DNA from: Escherichia coli
GTDB lineage: Bacteria > Pseudomonadota > Gammaproteobacteria > Enterobacterales > Enterobacteriaceae
Reading direction: 5' to 3' (one strand)
Length of the DNA stretch: 64,000 nucleotides
Assembly (NCBI RefSeq): GCF_024700885.2
Contig: NZ_CP117016.1
The position numbers and the translations under genes are program-made. Of this stretch, positions 11,049-61,700 are shown in pieces. The notes beneath the pieces are model-generated. The model had not been told where the DNA came from. It saw nothing but the letters and a program-made list of their open reading frames with translations, and ran no database searches. Position 1 is the stretch's first letter. Every line of letters begins with the position of its first letter.

Positions 11049-11162
11049 GGGGGCTCTGTTGGTTCTCCCGCAACGCTACTCTGTTTACCAGGTCAGGTCC
11101 GGAAGGAAGCAGCCAAGGCAGATGACGCGTGTGCCGGGATGTAGCTGGCAGGGCCCCCACCC
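11049..11162 (+). ncRNA. ffs: 4.5S RNA (SRP RNA) ffs
   Basis: GGGGGCTCTGTTGGTTCTCCCGCAACGCTACTCTGTTTACCAGGTCAGGTCCGGAAGGAAGCAGCCAAGGCAGATGACGCGTGTGCCGGGATGTAGCTGGCAGGGCCCCCACC matches the recalled E. coli 4.5S RNA, including the conserved SRP domain IV GGAAGGAAGCAGCC motif. Confidence 0.93.
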
Positions 11163-26692: not shown

Positions 26693-28624
26693 ATGAGTTA
26701 TCAGGTCTTAGCCCGAAAATGGCGCCCACAAACCTTTGCTGACGTCGTCGGCCAGGAACATGTGCTGACCGCACTGGCGAACGGCTTGTCGTTAGGGCGT
26801 ATTCATCATGCTTATCTTTTTTCCGGCACCCGTGGCGTCGGAAAAACCTCTATCGCCCGACTGCTGGCGAAGGGGCTAAACTGCGAAACCGGCATTACCG
26901 CGACGCCGTGCGGCGTGTGCGATAACTGTCGTGAAATCGAGCAGGGGCGCTTTGTCGATCTGATTGAAATCGACGCCGCCTCGCGCACCAAAGTTGAAGA
27001 CACTCGCGACCTGCTGGATAACGTCCAGTACGCTCCGGCGCGTGGTCGTTTCAAAGTTTATCTGATCGACGAAGTGCATATGCTGTCGCGCCACAGCTTT
27101 AACGCACTGTTAAAAACCCTTGAAGAGCCGCCGGAGCACGTTAAGTTTCTGCTGGCGACGACCGATCCGCAGAAATTGCCGGTGACGATTTTGTCGCGCT
27201 GTCTGCAATTCCATCTCAAGGCGCTGGATGTCGAGCAAATTCGCCATCAGCTTGAACACATCCTCAACGAAGAACATATCGCTCACGAGCCGCGGGCGCT
27301 GCAATTGCTGGCGCGCGCCGCTGAAGGCAGCCTGCGAGATGCCTTAAGTCTGACCGACCAGGCGATTGCCAGCGGTGACGGCCAGGTTTCAACTCAGGCG
27401 GTCAGTGCGATGCTGGGTACGCTTGACGACGATCAGGCGCTGTCGCTGGTTGAAGCGATGGTCGAGGCCAACGGCGAGCGCGTAATGGCGCTGATTAATG
27501 AAGCCGCTGCCCGTGGTATCGAGTGGGAAGCGTTGCTGGTGGAAATGCTCGGTCTGTTGCATCGTATTGCGATGGTACAACTTTCGCCTGCTGCACTTGG
27601 CAACGACATGGCCGCCATCGAGCTGCGGATGCGTGAACTGGCGCGCACCATACCGCCGACGGATATTCAGCTTTACTATCAGACGCTGTTGATTGGTCGC
27701 AAAGAATTACCGTATGCGCCAGACCGCCGTATGGGCGTTGAGATGACGCTGCTTCGTGCGCTGGCGTTCCATCCGCGTATGCCGCTGCCTGAGCCAGAAG
27801 TGCCACGCCAGTCCTTTGCGCCCGTCGCGCCAACGGCAGTAATGACGCCAACCCAGGTGCCGCCGCAACCGCAATCAGCGCCGCAGCAGGCACCGACTGT
27901 ACCGCTCCCGGAAACCACCAGCCAGGTGCTGGCGGCGCGCCAGCAGTTGCAGCGCGTGCAGGGAGCAACCAAAGCAAAAAAGAGTGAACCGGCAGCCGCT
28001 ACCCGCGCGCGGCCGGTGAATAACGCTGCGCTGGAAAGACTGGCTTCGGTCACCGATCGCGTTCAGGCGCGTCCGGTGCCATCGGCGCTGGAAAAAGCGC
28101 CAGCCAAAAAAGAAGCGTATCGCTGGAAGGCCACCACTCCAGTGATGCAGCAAAAAGAAGTGGTCGCCACGCCGAAGGCGCTAAAAAAAGCGCTGGAACA
28201 TGAAAAAACGCCGGAACTGGCGGCGAAGCTGGCGGCAGAAGCCATTGAGCGCGACCCGTGGGCGGCACAGGTGAGCCAACTTTCGCTACCAAAACTGGTC
28301 GAACAGGTGGCCTTAAATGCCTGGAAAGAGGAGAGCGACAACGCAGTATGTCTGCATTTGCGCTCCTCTCAGCGGCATTTGAACAACCGCGGCGCACAGC
28401 AAAAACTGGCTGAAGCGTTGAGCACGTTAAAAGGTTCAACGGTTGAACTGACTATCGTTGAAGATGATAATCCCGCGGTGCGTACGCCGCTGGAATGGCG
28501 TCAGGCGATATACGAAGAAAAACTTGCGCAGGCGCGCGAGTCCATTATTGCGGATAATAATATTCAGACCCTGCGTCGATTCTTCGATGCGGAGCTGGAT
28601 GAAGAAAGTATCCGCCCCATTTGA
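26693..28624 (+). CDS. dnaX: DNA polymerase III tau subunit (full length); the gamma subunit is made from the same start by -1 frameshifting
   Basis: 643-aa ORF; Walker A GTRGVGKTS, Zn-binding CGVCDNC. Confidence 0.96.
   Translation: MSYQVLARKWRPQTFADVVGQEHVLTALANGLSLGRIHHAYLFSGTRGVGKTSIARLLAKGLNCETGITATPCGVCDNCREIEQGRFVDLIEIDAASRTKVEDTRDLLDNVQYAPARGRFKVYLIDEVHMLSRHSFNALLKTLEEPPEHVKFLLATTDPQKLPVTILSRCLQFHLKALDVEQIRHQLEHILNEEHIAHEPRALQLLARAAEGSLRDALSLTDQAIASGDGQVSTQAVSAMLGTLDDDQALSLVEAMVEANGERVMALINEAAARGIEWEALLVEMLGLLHRIAMVQLSPAALGNDMAAIELRMRELARTIPPTDIQLYYQTLLIGRKELPYAPDRRMGVEMTLLRALAFHPRMPLPEPEVPRQSFAPVAPTAVMTPTQVPPQPQSAPQQAPTVPLPETTSQVLAARQQLQRVQGATKAKKSEPAAATRARPVNNAALERLASVTDRVQARPVPSALEKAPAKKEAYRWKATTPVMQQKEVVATPKALKKALEHEKTPELAAKLAAEAIERDPWAAQVSQLSLPKLVEQVALNAWKEESDNAVCLHLRSSQRHLNNRGAQQKLAEALSTLKGSTVELTIVEDDNPAVRTPLEWRQAIYEEKLAQARESIIADNNIQTLRRFFDAELDEESIRPI
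27976..28016 (+). other. dnaX: dnaX programmed -1 ribosomal frameshift site (slippery heptamer plus downstream stem-loop) yielding gamma
   Basis: A AAA AAG at 27976..27982 in the dnaX frame (codons GCA AAA AAG); the -1 frame reads GAG TGA (Glu, stop) directly after; GC-rich stem-loop CCGGCAGCCGC...GCGCGGCCGG at 27989..28016. Confidence 0.9.
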
Positions 28625-35940: not shown

Positions 35941-36046
35941 GTAGGCCAGATAAGGCGTTCACGCCGTATCTGGCATTTTGCTCTCAATGCCTGATGCGAC
36001 GCTGGCGCGTCTTATCATGCCTACATATCCGCGCCTATTATCCGGC
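35941..36046. repeat. REP/BIME cluster between gsk and ybaL
   Basis: GTAGGCCAGATAAGGCGTTCACGCCGTATCTGGC and GCCTGATGCGACGCTGGCGCGTCTTATCATGCCTAC are REP-type palindromes. Confidence 0.8.
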
Positions 36047-41697: not shown

Positions 41698-41781
41698 ACA
41701 CCGTCGCTTAAAGTGACGGCATAATAATAAAAATATGAAATTCCTCTTTGACGGGCCAATAGCGATATTGGCCATTTTTTT
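41698..41781 (+). ncRNA. chiX: Small regulatory RNA ChiX (MicM/SroB)
   Basis: ACACCGTCGCTTAAAGTGACGGCATAATAATAAAAATATGAAATTCCTCTTTGACGGGCCAATAGCGATATTGGCCATTTTTTT matches the recalled ChiX sequence; ends in an intrinsic terminator (GGCCAATAGCGATATTGGCC plus T7) that abuts the convergent ybaP stop. Confidence 0.88.
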
Positions 41782-49798: not shown

Positions 49799-52700
49799 AT
49801 GAGCCTGATTATTGATGTTATTTCGCGTAAAACATCCGTCAAACAAACGCTGATTAATCCTGGCGACGTCACGGTTGTTATTTATGAGCCTTCCGTGGTG
49901 CAGGTTCATGCTCAGGCCTCTGCCGTTTCGCGTTACGTCCGTGAAGGAAATGACCTGCTGATCTATATGCAGGACGGCACGGTGATCCGTTGCAACGGTT
50001 ATTTCCTGCAAGCGGCGAATACCGCTGAACAATCGGAACTGGTGTTTGCCGATGGGCAACAGCTAACCCATGTCACCTTTGCCGATACTGCTGCGGGTGG
50101 TTTAGCCCCCGTAGAACTGACTGCCCAGACCACTGCGATTGAAAGCATTGCGCCATTTCTTGATACCGTTGCTCAGACCAGCGCCTTCCCGTGGGGTTGG
50201 CTGGCGGGGGCGGCGGTAGGTGGTGGTGCGCTTGGTGCACTGCTGGCAAGCGGTGGTGATGGCGACTCGAAAACGGAAGTGATTAATAACCCTACGCCAC
50301 CCGCTGAGCCTGGCAACGCCACACCATCATTTTTAGTTACCGATAATCAGGGCGATCAGCGCGGCATTCTCGCCACCAATGACATCACCGATGACACCAC
50401 GCCAACCTTTAGCGGCAGCGGGCAGGCGGGGGCGACTATTCAGATTAAAGACAGTAACGGCAATACTATTGCCAGTACTCAGGTAGACAACAACGGTCAC
50501 TGGAGTGTCTCGTTACCCACGCAAAGTGCAGGTGAACATACCTGGTCAGTGGTGCAAATTGTCGGCAGTACCATCACTGACGCCGGTTCGATAACGTTAA
50601 CCATCGACAATAGTCAGGCCAGCGTGCAGGTTGCCACCACCGCAGGCGATAACATTATTAACGCCAGCGAACAGGCCGCCGGGTTTACGCTTTCTGGTAC
50701 CAGTAGCCATCTGGCGCAGGGAACAGAACTCACCGTTACGCTAAACGGCAAAACCTACACCACCAGCGTAGGCGCTAACGGTGCCTGGAGCGTGCAGGTA
50801 CCGACCGCCGATGCGCAGGCGTTAGGCGAAGGGAATCAGGCAGTGCTGGTCAGCGGGAAAGACGCCACAGGCAATACGGTCACCGGCGCGCAGCTTTTAA
50901 CGGTCGATACCCAACCGCCAACGCTTGCCATCAACACTATCGCTCAGGACAACATCGTCAGTGCTGCGGAACATAACGCCGCGCTGGTACTGAGCGGCAC
51001 TTCGAATGCAGAAGCGGGGCAAACCGTAACCCTGACCGTCAACGGGAAAAGCCATTCAGTAACCGTCGGTAGCGATGGAACCTGGCAAGTGACGCTGCCT
51101 GCCACGGAGGTACAGGCACTGGCGGAGGGGAACTACGCTGTCAATGCCAGTGTCAGCGATCGGGCAGGAAACACCACCAGCAACAGCGCGAATTTCACGG
51201 TAGACACCTCAGCACCCGTGGTCAGCGTTAACACCGTGGCGGGCGACGATATTCTTAATAATGCTGAGCAGGCCGTCGCGCAGATCATCTCCGGACAAGT
51301 CAGCGGTGCTTCTCCTGGCGATACGGTAACGGTGAAATTGGGCACTCATGTCCTGACGGGCATTGTGCTGGCAGATGGCAGCTGGAATGTGGCGCTGGAC
51401 CCAGCGGTAACCCGCACGCTGGATCGCGGAGCCAATACGATTTTCGTCACCGTGACAGATACTGCAGGAAATACCGGCGCGGCGTCTCGAGCAATCACGC
51501 TGGTCGGTGTCTCTCCGTTAATCACCATTAACACCGTCTCCGGCGATGACATTATCAGTGGCGCAGAAAAAGGTGCGCCACTGACCCTTACCGGTAGCAC
51601 TCAACAGGCCGAGACAGGACAAACCGTCACAGTAACCCTGGCTGGACAGAGTTTTACTACTACCGTGCAGGCTGATGGCTCCTGGAGTCTGACGGTACCT
51701 GCCGCCGCGATGGGAAATCTGCCTGACGGCGCGGTGGCGATTACCGCTTCTGTGACGGATCTCAGCGGCAATACCGGCAACACCTCTCGCACCATTACCG
51801 TCGACAGCCAGGCCCCGGCCTTAAGCATCGATCCACTGACCGCCGATAACATCATCAACGCCACCGAAAGCGGGCAGGATCTGCAAATCACCGGCACCAC
51901 CGACGCTCAGCCAGGGCAGACGGTGACCGTTACGTTGAATGGGCAGACCTATCAGGGCGTCGTGCAGTCCGACGGCACCTGGAGCGTGACCGTTCCCGCC
52001 GCCAACGTTGGCGCACTGGCTGACGGCAACGCTACGGTCACCGCCAGCGTGAACGATGTTGCCGGTAATCCGAGCAGCGTCTCACGCGTGGCGCTGGTCG
52101 ATGCCACGCCGCCGGTGGTAACCATTAATCCGGTGGCGACCGATAACGTCATCAACACGCCGGAACACACCCAGGCGCAAATCATCAGCGGCACGGTTAC
52201 TGGCGCTCAGGCGGGCGATATCGTCACCGTGACGCTGAATAATGTGGATTACACCACGGTGGTGGATGGTTCCGGCAACTGGAGTCTGGGTGTTCCGGCT
52301 TCCGTTGTCAGCGGACTGGTGGATGGCAGTTATCCGATCAACGTGTCAGTGACTGACCGCGCCGGAAACACGGGCAGCCAGTCACTGACTGTCACGGTCA
52401 ATACCGCCGCGCCAGTAATTGGTATTAACACCATTGCTGGCGATGATGTGATAAACGCCAGCGAAAAAGGGGCTGATGTCCAGATTACCGGTACCAGCGA
52501 TCAGCCAGCCAATACCGCCATCACCGTGACGCTGAACGGGCAAAATTACACCACCACGACCGACGCCTCCGGCAACTGGAGCGTCACCGTTCCGGCATCG
52601 GCGGTAACCGCACTGGGCCAGGCCAACTACACGGTAACGGCGGCGGTGACGAGTAATATCGGCAACAGCGCCACCGCCAGCCATAACGTGCTGGTTGACA

Positions 52701-55700
52701 GCGCGCTGCCCGGCGTGACCATTAACCCGGTGGCAACCGACGATATTATTAACGCCGCCGAAGCGGGCGTCGCGCAAACCATCAGCGGGCAGGTGACTGG
52801 AGCCGCCGTTGGCGACGCGGTAACCGTTACGCTGGGTGGCAATACCTACACCACCACCGTACAGCCGGGATTAAGCTGGAGCGTGAGCATTCCGGCGGAC
52901 GCTATTCAGGCGCTGGGTAATGGCGATTTAACGGTGAGCGCCTCGGTCACCAATCAAAACGGCAACACCGGCAGCGGCACGCGGGATATCACCATCGACG
53001 CCAATCTGCCCGGTCTGCGGGTCGATACGGTGGCAGGCGATGATGTGGTCAATATCATCGAGCACGGGCAGGCGCTGGTGGTCAGCGGCAGCAGCTCGGG
53101 GCTGGCTGAAGGCACGCCGCTTACCGTTACGATTAACAATGTGGAATACACCACTGCGGTGCAGGCCGATGGTAGCTGGAGCGTGGGCGTCACGGCGGCG
53201 CAGGTTAGCGCCTGGCCTGCGGGAACAGTAACGGTTACCGTGTCCGGGGAAAGTAGCGCCGAAAATCCGGTGAGCATTACGCATCCGGTTATGGTCGATC
53301 TCACTCCGGCGGCGATCACCATCAACACCATCGCCACGGATGATGTGATTAACGCCACAGAAAAAGGCGCTGATTTAACCCTTTCCGGCACCACCACTAA
53401 CGTAGAATCCGGTCAAACCGTCACCGTCACCTTTGGCGGGAAAAATTACACTGCCAGCGTGGCGAGCGATGGTAGCTGGGCTGCCACCGTTCCCGCCGCC
53501 GATCTGGCAGCATTACCAGAGGGCAGCGCCTCCGCGCAGGCCAGCGTCAGCAATATTAACGGCAATAGCGCCTCGGCGGTGCATAACTACAGCGTCGACA
53601 GCAGTGTCCCGACCATCATTATCAATACCGTTGCCAGCGACAATATCGTCAACGCCAGCGAAGCCGATGCGGGTGTGACGGTGAGCGGCAGCACCACTGC
53701 CGAGGCAGGGCAGATTGTTACGATAACGCTCAATAGCCCGACCGTGCAGACGTATCAGGCAACGGTACAGGCCGACGGTAGCTGGAGTATTAATATTCCG
53801 GCGGCAGATCTTGAGGCATTGACCGATGGCAGCCACACCCTGACCGCCACGGTCAATGACAAAGCAGGCAACCCGGCGAGCACCACGCATAATCTGGCGG
53901 TGGATCTCACCGTTCCGGTACTCACCATCAACACCATTGCGGGCGACGATATTATTAACGCCGCCGAACACGGGCAGGCGCTGGTGATTTCCGGTTCCAG
54001 CACTGGCGGAGAAGCGGGGGATGTCGTCACCGTCACGCTAAACAGTAAAACCTACACCACGACGCTGGATGCCTCCGGCAACTGGAGCGTCGGCGTTCCG
54101 GCGGCGGATGTCACGGCGCTGGGCAGCGGCCCGCAAACTGTCACCGCCAGCATTACCGACGCGGCAGGCAATAGCGATGATGCCAGCCGCACGGTTACAG
54201 TGAATCTGACCGCGCCGACCATTGGCATTAACACCATCGCCACCGATGACGTGATTAACGCCATCGAAAAAGGCGCGGATCTGCAAATTTCCGGCACCAG
54301 TAATCAGCCAGCTGGCACCACAATTACGCTGACGCTGAACGGGCAAAATTACACTGCCACGACGGACGCCGCAGGCAACTGGAGCACCACGGTGCCAGCC
54401 TCCGCCGTCAGTGCGCTGGGCGAAGCCAGTTATACGGTGACGGCGAATGTCACCGACAGCGCGGGTAACAGTAATTCCGCCAGCCATAACGTGCAGGTGA
54501 ATACCGCACTGCCTGGCGTCACCCTTAATCCGGTGGCGAGCGACGACATTATTAACGCCGCCGAATCGGGCGTGGCGCAGACCATCAGCGGGCAGGTGAC
54601 GGGCGCGGCGGCGGGCGATACGGTTACCGTAACGCTTGGCGGGAAAACCTACACCACTACCGTGCAGGGCAATTTAAGCTGGAGCGTGGGCGTTCCGGCG
54701 GCGGATATTCAGGCCATCGGCAATGGCGACCTGACAGTTAATGCCTCGGTGACCAACGGCGTTGGTAATACCGGCAGCGGTTCGCGAGATATTACTATCG
54801 ACGCTAATTTGCCTGGCCTGCGCGTCGATACCGTGGCGGGCGATGATGTGGTCAACAGCATCGAGCACGGTCAGGCACTGGTGATAACCGGTAGCAGCAG
54901 CGGGCTGGCGGCGGGCGCGGCGCTGACGGTGGTGATCAATAACGTCACCTACGGCGCGACGGTATTAGCCGATGGTACATGGAGCCTTGGCGTTCCAGCG
55001 GCAGATGTGGGCAACTGGCCTGCGGGTACGGTGAATATCACGGTTTCAGGTGCCACTAGCGCAGGAAACCCGGTCACTATCACCCATCCGGTCACCGTCG
55101 ATCTGGCGGCGGTGGCGATCTCCATTAACACCGTTTCCGGCGACGATGTGATTAACGCCGCCGAAAAAGGGGCAGATTTAACCCTTTCCGGCAGCACTTC
55201 CGGCGTGGAAGCGGGACAAACCGTCACCGTCACCTTTGGCGGTAAAACCTACACCGCCACCGTAGCGGGCGATGGTAGCTGGACAACCACCGTACCCGCC
55301 GCCGATCTCAGCGCGTTACGCGACGGCGACGCCACGGTACAGGCCAGCGTCAGCAATATTAACGGCAACACGGCTTCGGCGACCCACGCCTACAGCGTCG
55401 ATGCCACGGCACCGACGCTTGCCATTAACACCATCGCCACTGACGATATTCTGAACGCCGCCGAGGCGGGCAATCCGCTAACCATCAGCGGCAGTAGCAC
55501 CGCCGAAGCGGGGCAGACGGTAACTGTCACGCTTAATGGCGTGACTTACACCGGCACCGTCCTGGCGGACGGGAGCTGGAGCGTCAGCGTGCCGACGGCG
55601 GATCTCAGCAATCTGACCGCCAGCCAGTACACGGTCAGCGCCTCGGTAAGCGATAAAGCGGGTAACCCGGCAACCGCCACTCATGGGCTGGCGGTGGATC

Positions 55701-58700
55701 TCACCGTTCCCGTATTAACCATCAACACCGTCTCCGGCGATGACATTATTAACGCCGCCGAACACGGGCAGGCGCTGGTAATCTCCGGTTCCAGCGCTGG
55801 CGGCGAAGCGGGCGATGTCATCACCGTTACGTTAAACAGTAAAACCTATACCACCACGCTGGACGCTTCCGGCAACTGGAGCGTCGGCGTTCCGCTGTCA
55901 GATGTCACTGCGCTGGGCAGCGGCCCGCAAACCATCACAGCTACCATTACCGACGCGGCAGGCAACAGCGATGATGCCAGCCGCACGGTCACCGTGAATC
56001 TCACCGCGCCAACCATTGGTATCAACACTATCGCCAGCGATGACGTGATTAACGCCACGGAAAAAGGCGCGGATCTGCAAATTACCGGCACCAGTAATCA
56101 ACCCGCAGGCACCACAATAACGGTGACGCTGAACGGGCAAAATTACACCGCGACGACCGATTCCTCCGGCAACTGGAGCGCCACGGTGCCTGCCTCGGCA
56201 GTTAGCGCGCTGGGTGAGGCCAATTACACGGTAACCGCCGCCGCTACTGACGCCGATGGCAACAGCGGTTCCGCCAGCCATAACGTACAGGTTAATACCG
56301 CGCTGCCTGGCGTCACCATTAACGTGGTGGCAACGGACGATATTATTAACGCTGCCGAAGCAGGGACAGATCAAACTATCAGCGGGCAGGTGACGGGGGC
56401 TACGGCAGGCGATACGGTGACCGTCACGCTCGGCGGGGCGACTTACACTGCCACGGTGCAGGCGAATTTAAGCTGGAGCGTCGATGTTCCGGCCTCCGCG
56501 CTACAGGCGTTGGGCAACGGTGAGCTGACCATTTCGGCTTCGGTAACGAACAGCGTAGGCAATACCGGTAACGGCACGCGTGAAATCACCATCGACGCGA
56601 ATCTGCCCGGTCTGCGGATTGACACCGTGGCGGGCGATGACGTGGTCAATATTATCGAGCACGGACAGGCGCTGGTGATTACCGGCAGCAGCTCCGATCT
56701 GGCAGCGGGCAGCAACGTCACGCTGACCATTAACGGGCAAACCTATGTTGCGGCGGTACTGGCGGATGGCTCATGGAGCGTCGGCGTTCCGGCGGCAGAT
56801 GTCAGCGCCTGGCCTGCGGGGACGGTCACAATTACGGCGAGCGGCAACACCACCGCCGGAAATCCGGTCAGCGTTACGCATCCGGTGACTGTCGATCTCA
56901 CTGCGGTGGCGGTCAGCATCAACGCCATTACTGCCGATGACGTGATTAACGCTGCCGAAAAAGGCGCGGCGTTAACGCTCTCTGGCAGCACTTCTGGTGT
57001 GGAGGCCGGGCAAACGGTCACCGTCACCTTTGGCGGCAAAACTTACAGCGCCACGGTGGCTGCGAATGGTTCCTGGAGCACCTCGGTTCCGGCGGCAGAT
57101 ATGGCGGCCCTGCGTGATGGCGATGCCAGCGCACAGGCCAGAGTCAGCAATGTTAACGGCAACAGCGCCACCACTACTCACGCTTACAGCGTCGATGCCA
57201 GCGCGCCAACGGTGGCCATTAACACTATTGCAGGCGACGATATTCTTAACGCCGCCGAAGCGGGTGCTGCGCTGACTATCACTGGCAGCAGCACGGCGGA
57301 AGCGGGGCAGACGGTGACCGTCACCCTCAATGGCGAAAACTATACTGGCACGGTTCAAACGGACGGTAGCTGGAGCGTCAGCGTACCGCCAGCCGACTTA
57401 AGCGCCCTGACCGCCAGCAACTACACCGTTAGTGCGGCGGTGAGCGACAAAGCCGGAAACCCGGCCTCGGTTAATCACAACCTGACGGTGGATACGTCTG
57501 TTCCGGTTGTCACCATCAACACGGTGGCGGGCGATGATGTGATCAACGCGACGGAACACGCCCAGGCGCAGATTATCAGCGGCTCCGCCACGGGTGCGGC
57601 AACCGGCAGCACCGTGACGGTGACTATCGGCAGCACCACCTTCACCACCGTGCTGGACGCCAGCGGTAACTGGAGCGTCGGCGTTCCGGCAAGCGTCGTC
57701 TCGGCGCTGGCGAACGGCACGGTGACCATTAACGCCAGCGTCACCGATGCCGCCGGAAACAGCGGCAGCGCCACGCATCAGGTGACGGTCAATACTGGCC
57801 TGCCGTCAATTACCTTTAACGCCATCAGCGGCGATAACGTCCTGAACGCCGATGAAAAAGGCCAGCCGTTGACCATTAGCGGTAGCAGTACGGGGCTGGC
57901 GACGGGCGCGCAGGTCACCGTCACGCTCAACGGTCATAACTACAGCGCCACCACCGACGCGGCGGGCAACTGGACCTTAACCGTGCCGGTGAGCGATCTG
58001 GCGGCTCTGGGTCAGGCCAACTATACCGTCAGCGCCAGTGCCACCAGTGCGGCGGGTAACACCGCCAGCAGCCAGGCGAATTTACTGGTCGATAGCGGCC
58101 TGCCGGGCGTTACCATCAACACCGTGGCGGGCGATGATATTATCAACGCCGCCGAAGCCGGGGCCGATCAAACCATCAGCGGGGTGGTGACTCGCGCCGC
58201 CGCTGGCGATACGGTCACCGTGACGCTGGGCGGCAACACTTACACAGCGCAGGTTCAGCCCGATTTAAGTTGGAGCGTCACCGTTCCGGCAGACGATTTA
58301 CAGGCGTTGGGCAATGGCGATTTGACCATTAACGCCTCGGTTACCAACGCGAATGGCAACACTGGCAGCGGCTCGCGGGATATCACCATTGATGCCAACC
58401 TGCCGGGTCTGCGCGTGGATACCGTGGCGGGCGATGATATCGTCAACAGTATCGAGCACGGGCAGGCGCTGGTGATCACCGGCGGCAGTAGCGGCCTGAA
58501 TGCAGGTGCTGTGCTGACGGTTACCATCAACAGTGTGGCGTATTCCACCACGGTACAGGCGGACGGGAGCTGGAGCGTTGGCATTCCGGCGGCAAACGTC
58601 AGCGCCTGGCCTGCGGGGCCGTTAACCGTTGAAGTTACAGGACAGAGCAGCGCCGGAAACCCAGTCAGCGTCAGCCATCCGTTCACCGTCGATTTAACGG

Positions 58701-61700
58701 CGGTGGCAATCAGCATCAACACCGTTGCCAGCGATGACGTAATTAACGCCGCCGAAAAAGGCACTGGTCTGACCCTTTCCGGCAGCACCAGCGGGATTGA
58801 AAGCGGGCAAACCGTTACCGTCACTTTTGGCGGTAAAACCTACACTGCAAGCGTCGCCGCCAACGGTAGCTGGAGTGTGAACGTTCCAGCGGCAGATCTG
58901 GCAACTCTGCCAGACGGCGCGGCGAACGTGCAGGCTAGTGTCAGCAGCGCGAGCGGTAACAGTGCCTCGGCGACCCATGCGTATAGCGTTGACGCCAGCG
59001 CACCGACGCTCACCATTAACACCATTGCCAGCGACGATATTCTTAACGCCACGGAGGCGGGAAGCCCGCTCACCATCAGCGGCACCAGCACCGCCGAAAC
59101 CGGGCAGACGGTCACCGTGACCCTTAACGGCGCAACCTACACCGGCAATGTGCAGGCGGACGGTAGCTGGAGCGTCAGCGTTCCCACTTCAGCCCTGGGC
59201 GTGCTAAGTGCAAGCAATTACACCGTCAGCGCCACGGTCAACGACAAAGCGGGCAACCCCGGCAGCGCCAGCCATAATCTGGCGGTAGACACCACCGCGC
59301 CGGTTCTCACCATTAACACCGTGGCGGGCGATGACATCATCAACGACGCCGAACACGGGCAGGCGCTGGTGATTTCTGGCACCAGCACGGGCGGGGAAGC
59401 GGGCGATGTGGTGAGCGTTGTGCTCAACGGCAAAACCTACACCACCACCCTGGATGCCTCCGGCAACTGGAGCGTTGGCGTTCCGGCGGCGGATGTTACG
59501 GCACTGGGTAGCGGCGCACAGACCATCACCGCCAGCGTCAGCGATCGGGCGGGTAACAGCGATGACGCCAGCCGCACCGTGACCGTCAGCCTCAGCGCGC
59601 CAGTGATTAGCATCAACACCATCGCGGGCGATGATGTGATCAACGCGACGGAAAAAGGATCTGATCTGGCGCTTTCCGGCACCAGCGATCAGCCTGCGGG
59701 TACGGCGATCACCGTCACCCTGAACGGACAAAACTACAGCGCCACTACCGACGCCTCCGGCAACTGGAGCGTCACCGTGCCCGCCTCGGCGGTCAGTGCG
59801 CTGGGCGAAGCCACCTACAGCGTCACGGCGAGCGTTACCAATGCTCAGGGTAACAGCAGCACCGCCAGCCATAACGTGCAGGTCAATACCGCGCTGCCGG
59901 GCGTCACCATTAATCCGGTGGCGACGGACGATATTATCAACGCTTCAGAGGCGGGCAGCGCGCAAACTATCAGCGGCCAGGTAACCGGTGCGGCGGCGGG
60001 TAGCATCGTCACCGTTGAACTGGGCGGTAAAACTTACACCGCCACCGTCCAGCCAGATTTAAGCTGGAATGTGAGCGTACCAGCCGCCGACTGGCAGGCG
60101 TTAGGTAATGGTGAGTTAACGGTTAATGCCTCGGTAACCAACGCCGTTGGCAACACCGGTAGCGGCACGCGCGATATCACCATCGACGCCAGTCTGCCTG
60201 GCCTGCGGGTGGATACCGTTGCAGGCGATGATGTGGTCAATATCATCGAACATGCTCAGGCGCAGGTGATTACTGGCACCAGCTCTGGCTTTGCGGCGGG
60301 CACGGCGCTGACGGTGGTGATAAATAACCAAACTTATGCCGCCACGGTGCTGGCGAATGGTACCTGGAGCGTCGGCGTACCGGCGGCGGATGTCAGTAAC
60401 TGGCCTGCGGGAACGCTGAACATTACCGTTAGCGGCGCGAACAGTGCCGGAACGCAAACCAGCATTACCCATCCGCTGACAGTTGATCTCAGCACTGTCG
60501 CCGTCAGCATAAACAGCATCACCAGCGATGATGTGATTAACGCCGCCGAAAAAGGCGCGGCATTAACGCTCTCCGGCAGCACGTCCGGCGTCGAAGCGGG
60601 GCAAGCCGTTACCATTACTTTTGGCGGTAAAACCTACACCACCACGGTGGCGGCAAACGGTAGCTGGAGCACCACCGTTCCGGCGGCGGATATGGCGGCC
60701 CTGCGTGACGGCGATGCCAGCGCCCAGGTGCGGGTGACTAACGTCAACGGCAACAGCGCCACGGCAACGCATGAATACAGCGTCGATAGCGCCGCGCCAA
60801 CGGTGACCATCAATACCATTGCCAGTGATAACATCATCAACGCCAGCGAAGCGGCGGCGGGCGTGACGGTATCCGGCACCAGCACGGCGGAGGCAGGGCA
60901 GACGCTGACCGTCACGCTTAATGGCACTAACTACCAGACCACGGTGCAGGCAGACGGCAGCTGGAGTTTAACGCTGCCCGCCAGCGACTTAACCGCACTT
61001 GCCAATAACGGCTACACCCTGACCGCCACGGTCAGCGATTTGGCGGGTAACCCTGGCAGCGCCAGCAAAGGTGTGACCGTCGATACCACCGCGCCCGTCA
61101 TCAGCTTTAACACCGTGGCGGGCGACGATGTGATTAACAACGTTGAACACACTCAGGCGCAGATTATCAGCGGCACCGCCTCGGGCGCGGTGGCGGGCGA
61201 CCGCCTGGTGGTGACCATCGCCGGGCAGCAGTATGTCACCAGCACCGATGCCAGCGGCAACTGGAGCGTTGGCGTGCCTGCCAGCGTGATTTCCGGCCTT
61301 GCGGACGGCACAGTGACTATCAGCGCCACTGTCACCGATAGCGCAGGCAACAGCAGCACGCAGACGCACAACGTGCAGGTGAACACGGCGGCAGTGTCGC
61401 TCTCGGTCAGCACCATCAGCGGCGATAACCTTATTAACGCCGCCGAAGCAGGCAGTGCGCTGACCCTGAGCGGCACCGGAACGAACTTTGCCGCAGGTAC
61501 AGTAGTGACCGTGTTGCTTAACGGCAAAGGCTACAGCGCTACCATTCAGAGCAACGGGAGCTGGAGCGTGAACGTGCCGGCGGCAGACGTTGCGGCGCTT
61601 GCCGATGGCACCAGCTACACGGTCAGCGCTTCCGCCCAGGACAGCGCCGGAAACAGCGCCACGGCTTCGCGCAGTGTGGCGGTGGATCTCACCGCGCCGA

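Follow-up and report, generated by a model that had tools for sequence, protein, structure and literature searches.

The window analysed here, a stretch of DNA of 64,000 nucleotides, is a segment of an Escherichia coli chromosome in which dnaX is accompanied by the neighbours priC, ybaN, apt, ybaB, recR, htpG and adk in an E. coli-like order. The dnaX coding sequence spans positions 26693..28624 of the plus strand. It comprises 643 codons and, in the zero frame, encodes tau (643 amino acids) up to a TGA stop codon at 28622-28624 (ORF list). No other long open reading frame (ORF) crosses the recoding site described below. Minus-strand ORFs across the site (e.g. 27679-28053, 124 amino acids) are unsupported and were taken for the antisense open frames that GC-rich genes usually show. 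The dnaX product scores 982.5 bits with NF005942 (‘DNA polymerase III subunit gamma/tau’), an NCBIfam equivalog whose cutoff is 613. DnaX contains the Pfam models DNA_pol3_delta2, DNAX_ATPase_lid, DNA_pol3_gamma3, DNA_pol3_tau_4 and DNA_pol3_tau_5 (domains I-V). By the Pfam assignments, residues 20-178 constitute the clamp-loader ATPase module, residues 182-230 the lid, residues 232-358 domain III, residues 417-498 the DnaB-binding tau domain IV and residues 500-640 the alpha-binding tau domain V. The protein is identical to WP_000122015.1 of E. coli 042, and the gene differs from that of strain 042 at 13 nucleotides, all of them synonymous and none inside 27957-28021.

Elsewhere in the window, Rfam models locate two expected small RNAs on the plus strand, ffs (4.5S/SRP RNA; 11057-11153, 68.1 bits) and sroB (41698-41781, 81.1 bits), and an intact naRNA4 element (REP/BIME-type; 35944-36021, plus strand, 73 bits). 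In E. coli 042, an IS1397 element of ~1.4 kb (IS3-like, with a programmed-frameshift transposase) is inserted at the point that matches a window position of about 36005, about 8 kb downstream of dnaX. IS1397 is absent from the window, and its programmed frameshift was therefore dropped as an in-window comparison. The stretch from about 50900 to 64000 (plus strand) contains a giant BapA/SiiEA-like adhesin gene with internal repetition, which follows a TolC-family gene. The adhesin gene yields strong internal repeats in blastn self-matches here and is a pseudogene in strain 042. Between 34000 and 58000, 98.2% is the highest identity reached by a complete RefSeq E. coli genome, and this strain's version is thus not in that collection.

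The recoding element of dnaX occupies 65 nt (27957..28021, plus strand) and reads UGC AGGGAG CAACCAAAGC AAAAAAG AGUGA ACCGGCAGCCGCUACCCGCGCGCGGCCGGU GAAU. In a cmscan search, this stretch matches the Rfam family RF00382 (DnaX frameshifting element) over its full extent (model positions 1-65 of 65), with a score of 96.8 bits against a gathering score of 35 and an E-value of 5.8e-20. Each sequence-level feature that defines RF00382 was looked for in the window and found. The RefSeq sequence_feature ‘DnaX frameshifting element’ of strain 042 has the same offset as the Rfam match. Many E. coli chromosomes match a 401-nt piece surrounding the site with 100% identity, and beneath this match lies the same RefSeq label. 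The element is 100% identical to that of the K-12 derivative J53. These matches uphold the description of the locus as a classic recoding site in the first-pass annotation.

The element is nearly invariant within the species. It is located at a single place in each of 5,423 of the 5,426 complete E. coli genomes and was not found in the other three. Its identity over the aligned stretch reaches 99% or more in 5,372 of the 5,423 genomes, a count in which a few genomes may differ at the last bases because BLAST trims terminal mismatches. Two E. coli genomes carry the element on records labelled ‘plasmid’. These two cases and the three missing ones probably reflect replicon mislabelling or problems of assembly or species assignment.

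The slippery heptamer A_AAA_AAG is positioned at 27976..27982 on the plus strand and encodes Lys429 and Lys430 in the zero frame. Its register was checked arithmetically. Counted from the ATG at 26693, the heptamer begins at an offset of 1283 nt (27976), and 1283 mod 3 equals 2, so the zero-frame codons at the site are GCA AAA AAG AGU GAA and the heptamer adopts the register A_AAA_AAG (X_XXY_YYZ). Translation in the shifted frame gives GAG (27982-27984) followed immediately by TGA (27985-27987) within 27982..27987 of the plus strand. Both the correct frame of the heptamer and the immediate -1-frame stop had been proposed in the first-pass annotation, and both agree with this arithmetic. The -1 product, gamma, gains one Glu residue at position 431, where the zero frame has Ser, and then stops. 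It is 431 amino acids long with the C-terminus ...GATKAKKE, compared with 643 amino acids for the zero-frame product. The AGUGA linker (27983-27987) between the heptamer and the downstream hairpin overlaps the -1-frame GAG and TGA codons. The shift residue, 430, lies past domain III and near the start of the Pfam model of tau domain IV. Given this placement relative to the Pfam domains, a shift at residue 430 is predicted to leave the protein without domain V and with hardly any of domain IV, and the truncation would thereby take away the tau-only functions.

The bare AAAAAAG heptamer is present in 14 copies on the two strands of the window, and dnaX itself contains two copies besides the one at the recoding site. 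The two extra copies, at 28106-28112 and 28184-28190 on the plus strand in the tau-specific part of dnaX, are in the wrong register (AAA_AAA_G, offset mod 3 = 0), and no AGGGAG is found upstream of either. They are most likely ordinary Lys-Lys-Glu codons. It is very unlikely that these heptamers give low-level extra frameshift products, or that the strain shifts with an efficiency unlike that of K-12 through trans factors. Nothing was observed in favour of extra products or altered efficiency; the two heptamers are out of register and lack AGGGAG, and the cassette is identical to that of K-12.

On the 5′ side of the heptamer at the recoding site, an internal Shine-Dalgarno (SD)-like sequence, AGGGAG, is found at 27960..27965 of the plus strand, within the Rfam DnaX model. 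It is followed by the 10-nt spacer CAACCAAAGC (27966-27975) and then by the heptamer. The SD-like sequence is known as a major 5′ stimulator of dnaX frameshifting (PMC5009743, PMC6771820). The combined motif AGGGAG-N10-AAAAAAG occurs once in the window, against an expectation of 0.06, even with one mismatch allowed.

On the 3′ side, the stimulatory hairpin is located at 27988..28017 of the plus strand by both the Rfam consensus structure and the minimum free energy (MFE) fold, and it starts 5 nt 3′ of the heptamer. The hairpin is GC-rich (ACCGGC-A-GCCGC-UACCC-GCG-C-GC-G-GCCGGU) and consists of 11 base pairs. A 6-bp lower stem and an A bulge lead to five upper pairs, which are interrupted by a C bulge and a G bulge and capped by a 5-nt loop. 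The MFE of the hairpin is -19.1 kcal/mol, and the structure makes up 84% of the ensemble. For the fold of positions 27983-28020 (38 nt), the check suggested in the first-pass annotation, the z-score relative to dinucleotide shuffles is -1.7, with 12 of 200 shuffles folding equally well. The z-score is -2.6 for a 42-nt stretch (3 of 200 shuffles equally good) and -0.8 for the 76-nt context. By itself, the folding energy of the hairpin is only weakly better than that of shuffled sequences, and the support comes from the combination of features and not from the fold. Folding energy was dropped as stand-alone evidence, and the covariance model and covariation were relied on, because neither the 38-nt nor the 76-nt fold clearly surpasses the shuffles.

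The dnaX locus is undamaged, and none of its three stimulators carries a mutation. The parts named in the first-pass annotation, which had reported an intact cassette at 27976-28016, are all in place, including the GC-rich stem-loop. However, the stem-loop ends at 28017 rather than 28016, and the annotated extent omitted the third stimulator, AGGGAG. The E. coli K-12 dnaX element (RF00382) has the same 65 nt, heptamer, register, AGGGAG at -10, AGUGA and 11-bp hairpin, and it leads to the same -1 GAG-UGA and the same product lengths of 643 and 431 amino acids. The host strain differs from K-12 and 042 only outside the element, by synonymous changes elsewhere in dnaX.

A pattern scan with AGGGAG-N10-AAAAAAGAGTGA in one genome per species returned 120 stretches. 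Removal of duplicates and unrelated stretches left 62 distinct Enterobacterales cassettes from Citrobacter, Enterobacter, Kosakonia, Kluyvera, Pluralibacter, Pseudescherichia, Trabulsiella, Siccibacter, Buttiauxella, Pantoea, Erwinia, Mixta and Serratia, and the resulting alignment (A1) contains 63 Enterobacterales sequences. Because the scan pattern required the bases of the SD-like sequence, the heptamer and GAGTGA, their invariance in the alignment is circular, and cross-species conservation is not claimed for them. The hairpin alone is informative in this set, and a post-hoc [AG]CCG filter dropped 0 Enterobacterales matches.

Across the 63 sequences, 87.4% of the cells pair under the E. 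coli structure, and sliding the 3′ partner by 1-3 columns gives 29-53%. At the closing pair of the hairpin, 42 sequences have A-U and 19 have G-C, both sides being changed, and pair 36/57 changes from G-C to A-U in one Mixta sequence. The covariation score exceeds those of 500 of 500 shuffles. Judged from this alignment, the lower stem is kept via compensatory changes across Citrobacter, Enterobacter, Pantoea, Erwinia, Mixta, Serratia, Buttiauxella and other genera. The register of the upper stem is not kept between lineages, and pairs 41-51 and 42-50 of the E. coli structure are formed in less than half of the sequences. The Enterobacter, Pantoea, Serratia and Buttiauxella types have a different 4-bp upper helix, and their hairpins have energies of -20.7 to -22.6 kcal/mol. 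An E. coli-type upper stem for all genera was rejected, and conservation is claimed for the lower stem only, because these upper pairs fail and other lineages use the different helix.

Three groups of scan matches stand apart from the typical cassettes. In dnaX of Candidatus Pantoea persica (L052 2962-3036, minus strand), the SD-like element, heptamer and GAG TGA are retained. Relative to another Pantoea sequence (L014), 12 nt are deleted in frame, and with them the hairpin loses its upper stem and 3′ arm. No canonical hairpin is predicted for L052, and an alternative fold has an energy of -18.6 kcal/mol (z-score of -1.1). This cassette may represent a weakened stimulator in a reduced-genome symbiont. 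A Citrobacter-type dnaX cassette was returned from CACSKA010000001.1 (L065 3021-3095), a record labelled Chryseobacterium sp. 18061 (Bacteroidota). It is almost identical to the cassette of Citrobacter sp. 18056 from the same project (L062) and probably originates from contamination or a mislabelled assembly. The pattern is also nearly invariant over many Collinsella species (L002, L003, L012, L013, L034 and about 40 other loci), where it corresponds to the ribosome-binding site and the GTG codon that starts an RpoD-like sigma factor of 448 amino acids (VPKKSESTGTG...) (e.g. L034 9769-9796, minus strand). The Collinsella matches, which have stops in all three upstream frames and no hairpin, are coincidental and do not constitute a recoding site. 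They were rejected as a second distant cassette.

The frequency of the bare heptamer in the window and the modest z-score of the hairpin energy would fit a chance meeting, free of function, between a Lys-Lys heptamer and a GC-rich hairpin in a GC-rich coding region. That such a chance meeting accounts for the cassette has a negligible probability in view of the Rfam E-value, the expectation of the combined motif per window, the near-invariance of the element in >5,000 genomes, the covariation across genera and decades of experiments (PMC5009743, PMC6771820, PMC7282821). The chance reading is already refuted by motif statistics, conservation and experiments.

The cassette is almost certainly the programmed -1 ribosomal frameshift element of E. 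coli dnaX, and nothing was found in the sequence against this assignment. The K-12 element is the sequence on which frameshifting was characterised experimentally (reviewed in PMC5009743 and PMC6771820). In the following account, the anatomy is derived from the sequence in the window, and the dynamics and the ~50% efficiency are taken from literature on the identical sequence. When ribosomes translating dnaX arrive at A_AAA_AAG, one Lys codon occupies the P site and the other the A site, AGGGAG lies 10 nt upstream and the 11-bp GC-rich hairpin begins 5 nt downstream. The internal SD-like sequence would pair with the anti-SD of 16S rRNA. The hairpin, positioned at the mRNA entry channel, would slow translocation and also make it harder for tRNA to bind in the A site. 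The single tRNA-Lys (mnm5s2U34) would pair with the -1-frame AAA at least as well as with AAG. With translocation impeded, approximately half of the ribosomes would move back by one base, read GAG (Glu) and stop at UGA. This early stop would release gamma (431 amino acids), which comprises the clamp-loader domains I-III and a linker. Ribosomes that stay in frame would produce tau (643 amino acids), which also has domain IV, for binding DnaB, and domain V, for binding polymerase alpha. Both clamp-loader subunits would thus be supplied by one gene at a ratio of ~1:1.

A_AAA_AAG is especially shift-prone in E. coli, where one tRNA-Lys decodes both Lys codons, and the 3′ stem-loop of dnaX has 11 base pairs (PMC5009743). 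Slippage occurs mainly during the translocation of two tRNAs, which is hindered by the hairpin, and limiting aminoacyl-tRNA opens a slow one-tRNA ‘hungry’ route (PMC6771820). In a reconstituted in vitro system, removal of the hairpin reduced frameshifting from ~60% to ~25%, and mutations of the heptamer left at most 5%. Binding of A-site tRNA is likewise obstructed by the hairpin (PMC7282821). The wild-type linker used in these experiments is the purine-rich AGUGA (PMC7282821), which is matched exactly at 27983-27987.

Other bacteria reach the same outcome, tau and gamma from one dnaX gene, by different routes, transcriptional slippage in Thermus thermophilus and proteolysis in Caulobacter (PMC5009743). 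A short product of the dnaX gene in the window could likewise be attributed to RNA polymerase slipping along the A run at the heptamer, as in Thermus. This origin is extremely improbable here. The A run is 6 nt long, whereas efficient slippage has been described at runs of ~9 A or T (PMC5009743). Furthermore, the window combines its 6-A run with ribosomal stimulators, the SD-like element and the hairpin, at spacings of 10 nt and 5 nt that are appropriate for the ribosome, and the shift is reproduced by in vitro translation of defined mRNAs (PMC6771820, PMC7282821). The Caulobacter crescentus precedent, in which gamma derives from tau by proteolysis (PMC5009743), raises the further possibility that gamma, if made, is a cleavage product of tau and the cassette is incidental. 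The likelihood of this is as slight as that of polymerase slippage. In E. coli, 50% of ribosomes slip into the -1 frame at dnaX and terminate one codon later (PMC5009743), the cassette in the window is identical to the characterised one, and mutation of the heptamer abolishes frameshifting in vitro, to the residual level given above (PMC7282821). Moreover, compensatory conservation of a hairpin in a coding region would be unexpected of an incidental sequence.

Programmed ribosomal frameshifting, the reading preferred here, is shared with the transposase (orfA-orfB) sites of the IS3 family, whose heptamers are reported to be of the A_AAA_AAG type and are often accompanied by an SD-like stimulator upstream and a structure downstream (PMC5009743). 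The outcomes differ in that the IS3-family shift fuses two ORFs into a longer protein, whereas the dnaX shift leads to an immediate stop and a shorter protein.

Both tau and gamma should be made from the dnaX gene of this strain. This conclusion is sound on established knowledge because the element is identical to the experimentally characterised K-12 sequence. The dnaX frameshift has been a textbook case of recoding since 1990. The element is already known and ordinary, RefSeq annotates it automatically, and it brings no new biology. Its value is practical. As anticipated in the first-pass annotation, which had offered the site as an internal check on frame assignment, the element confirms both which gene dnaX is and the frame in which it is read, and it shows that the locus is undamaged. 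For annotators, a second product (gamma, 431 amino acids, ending ...KKE) should be recorded for dnaX.
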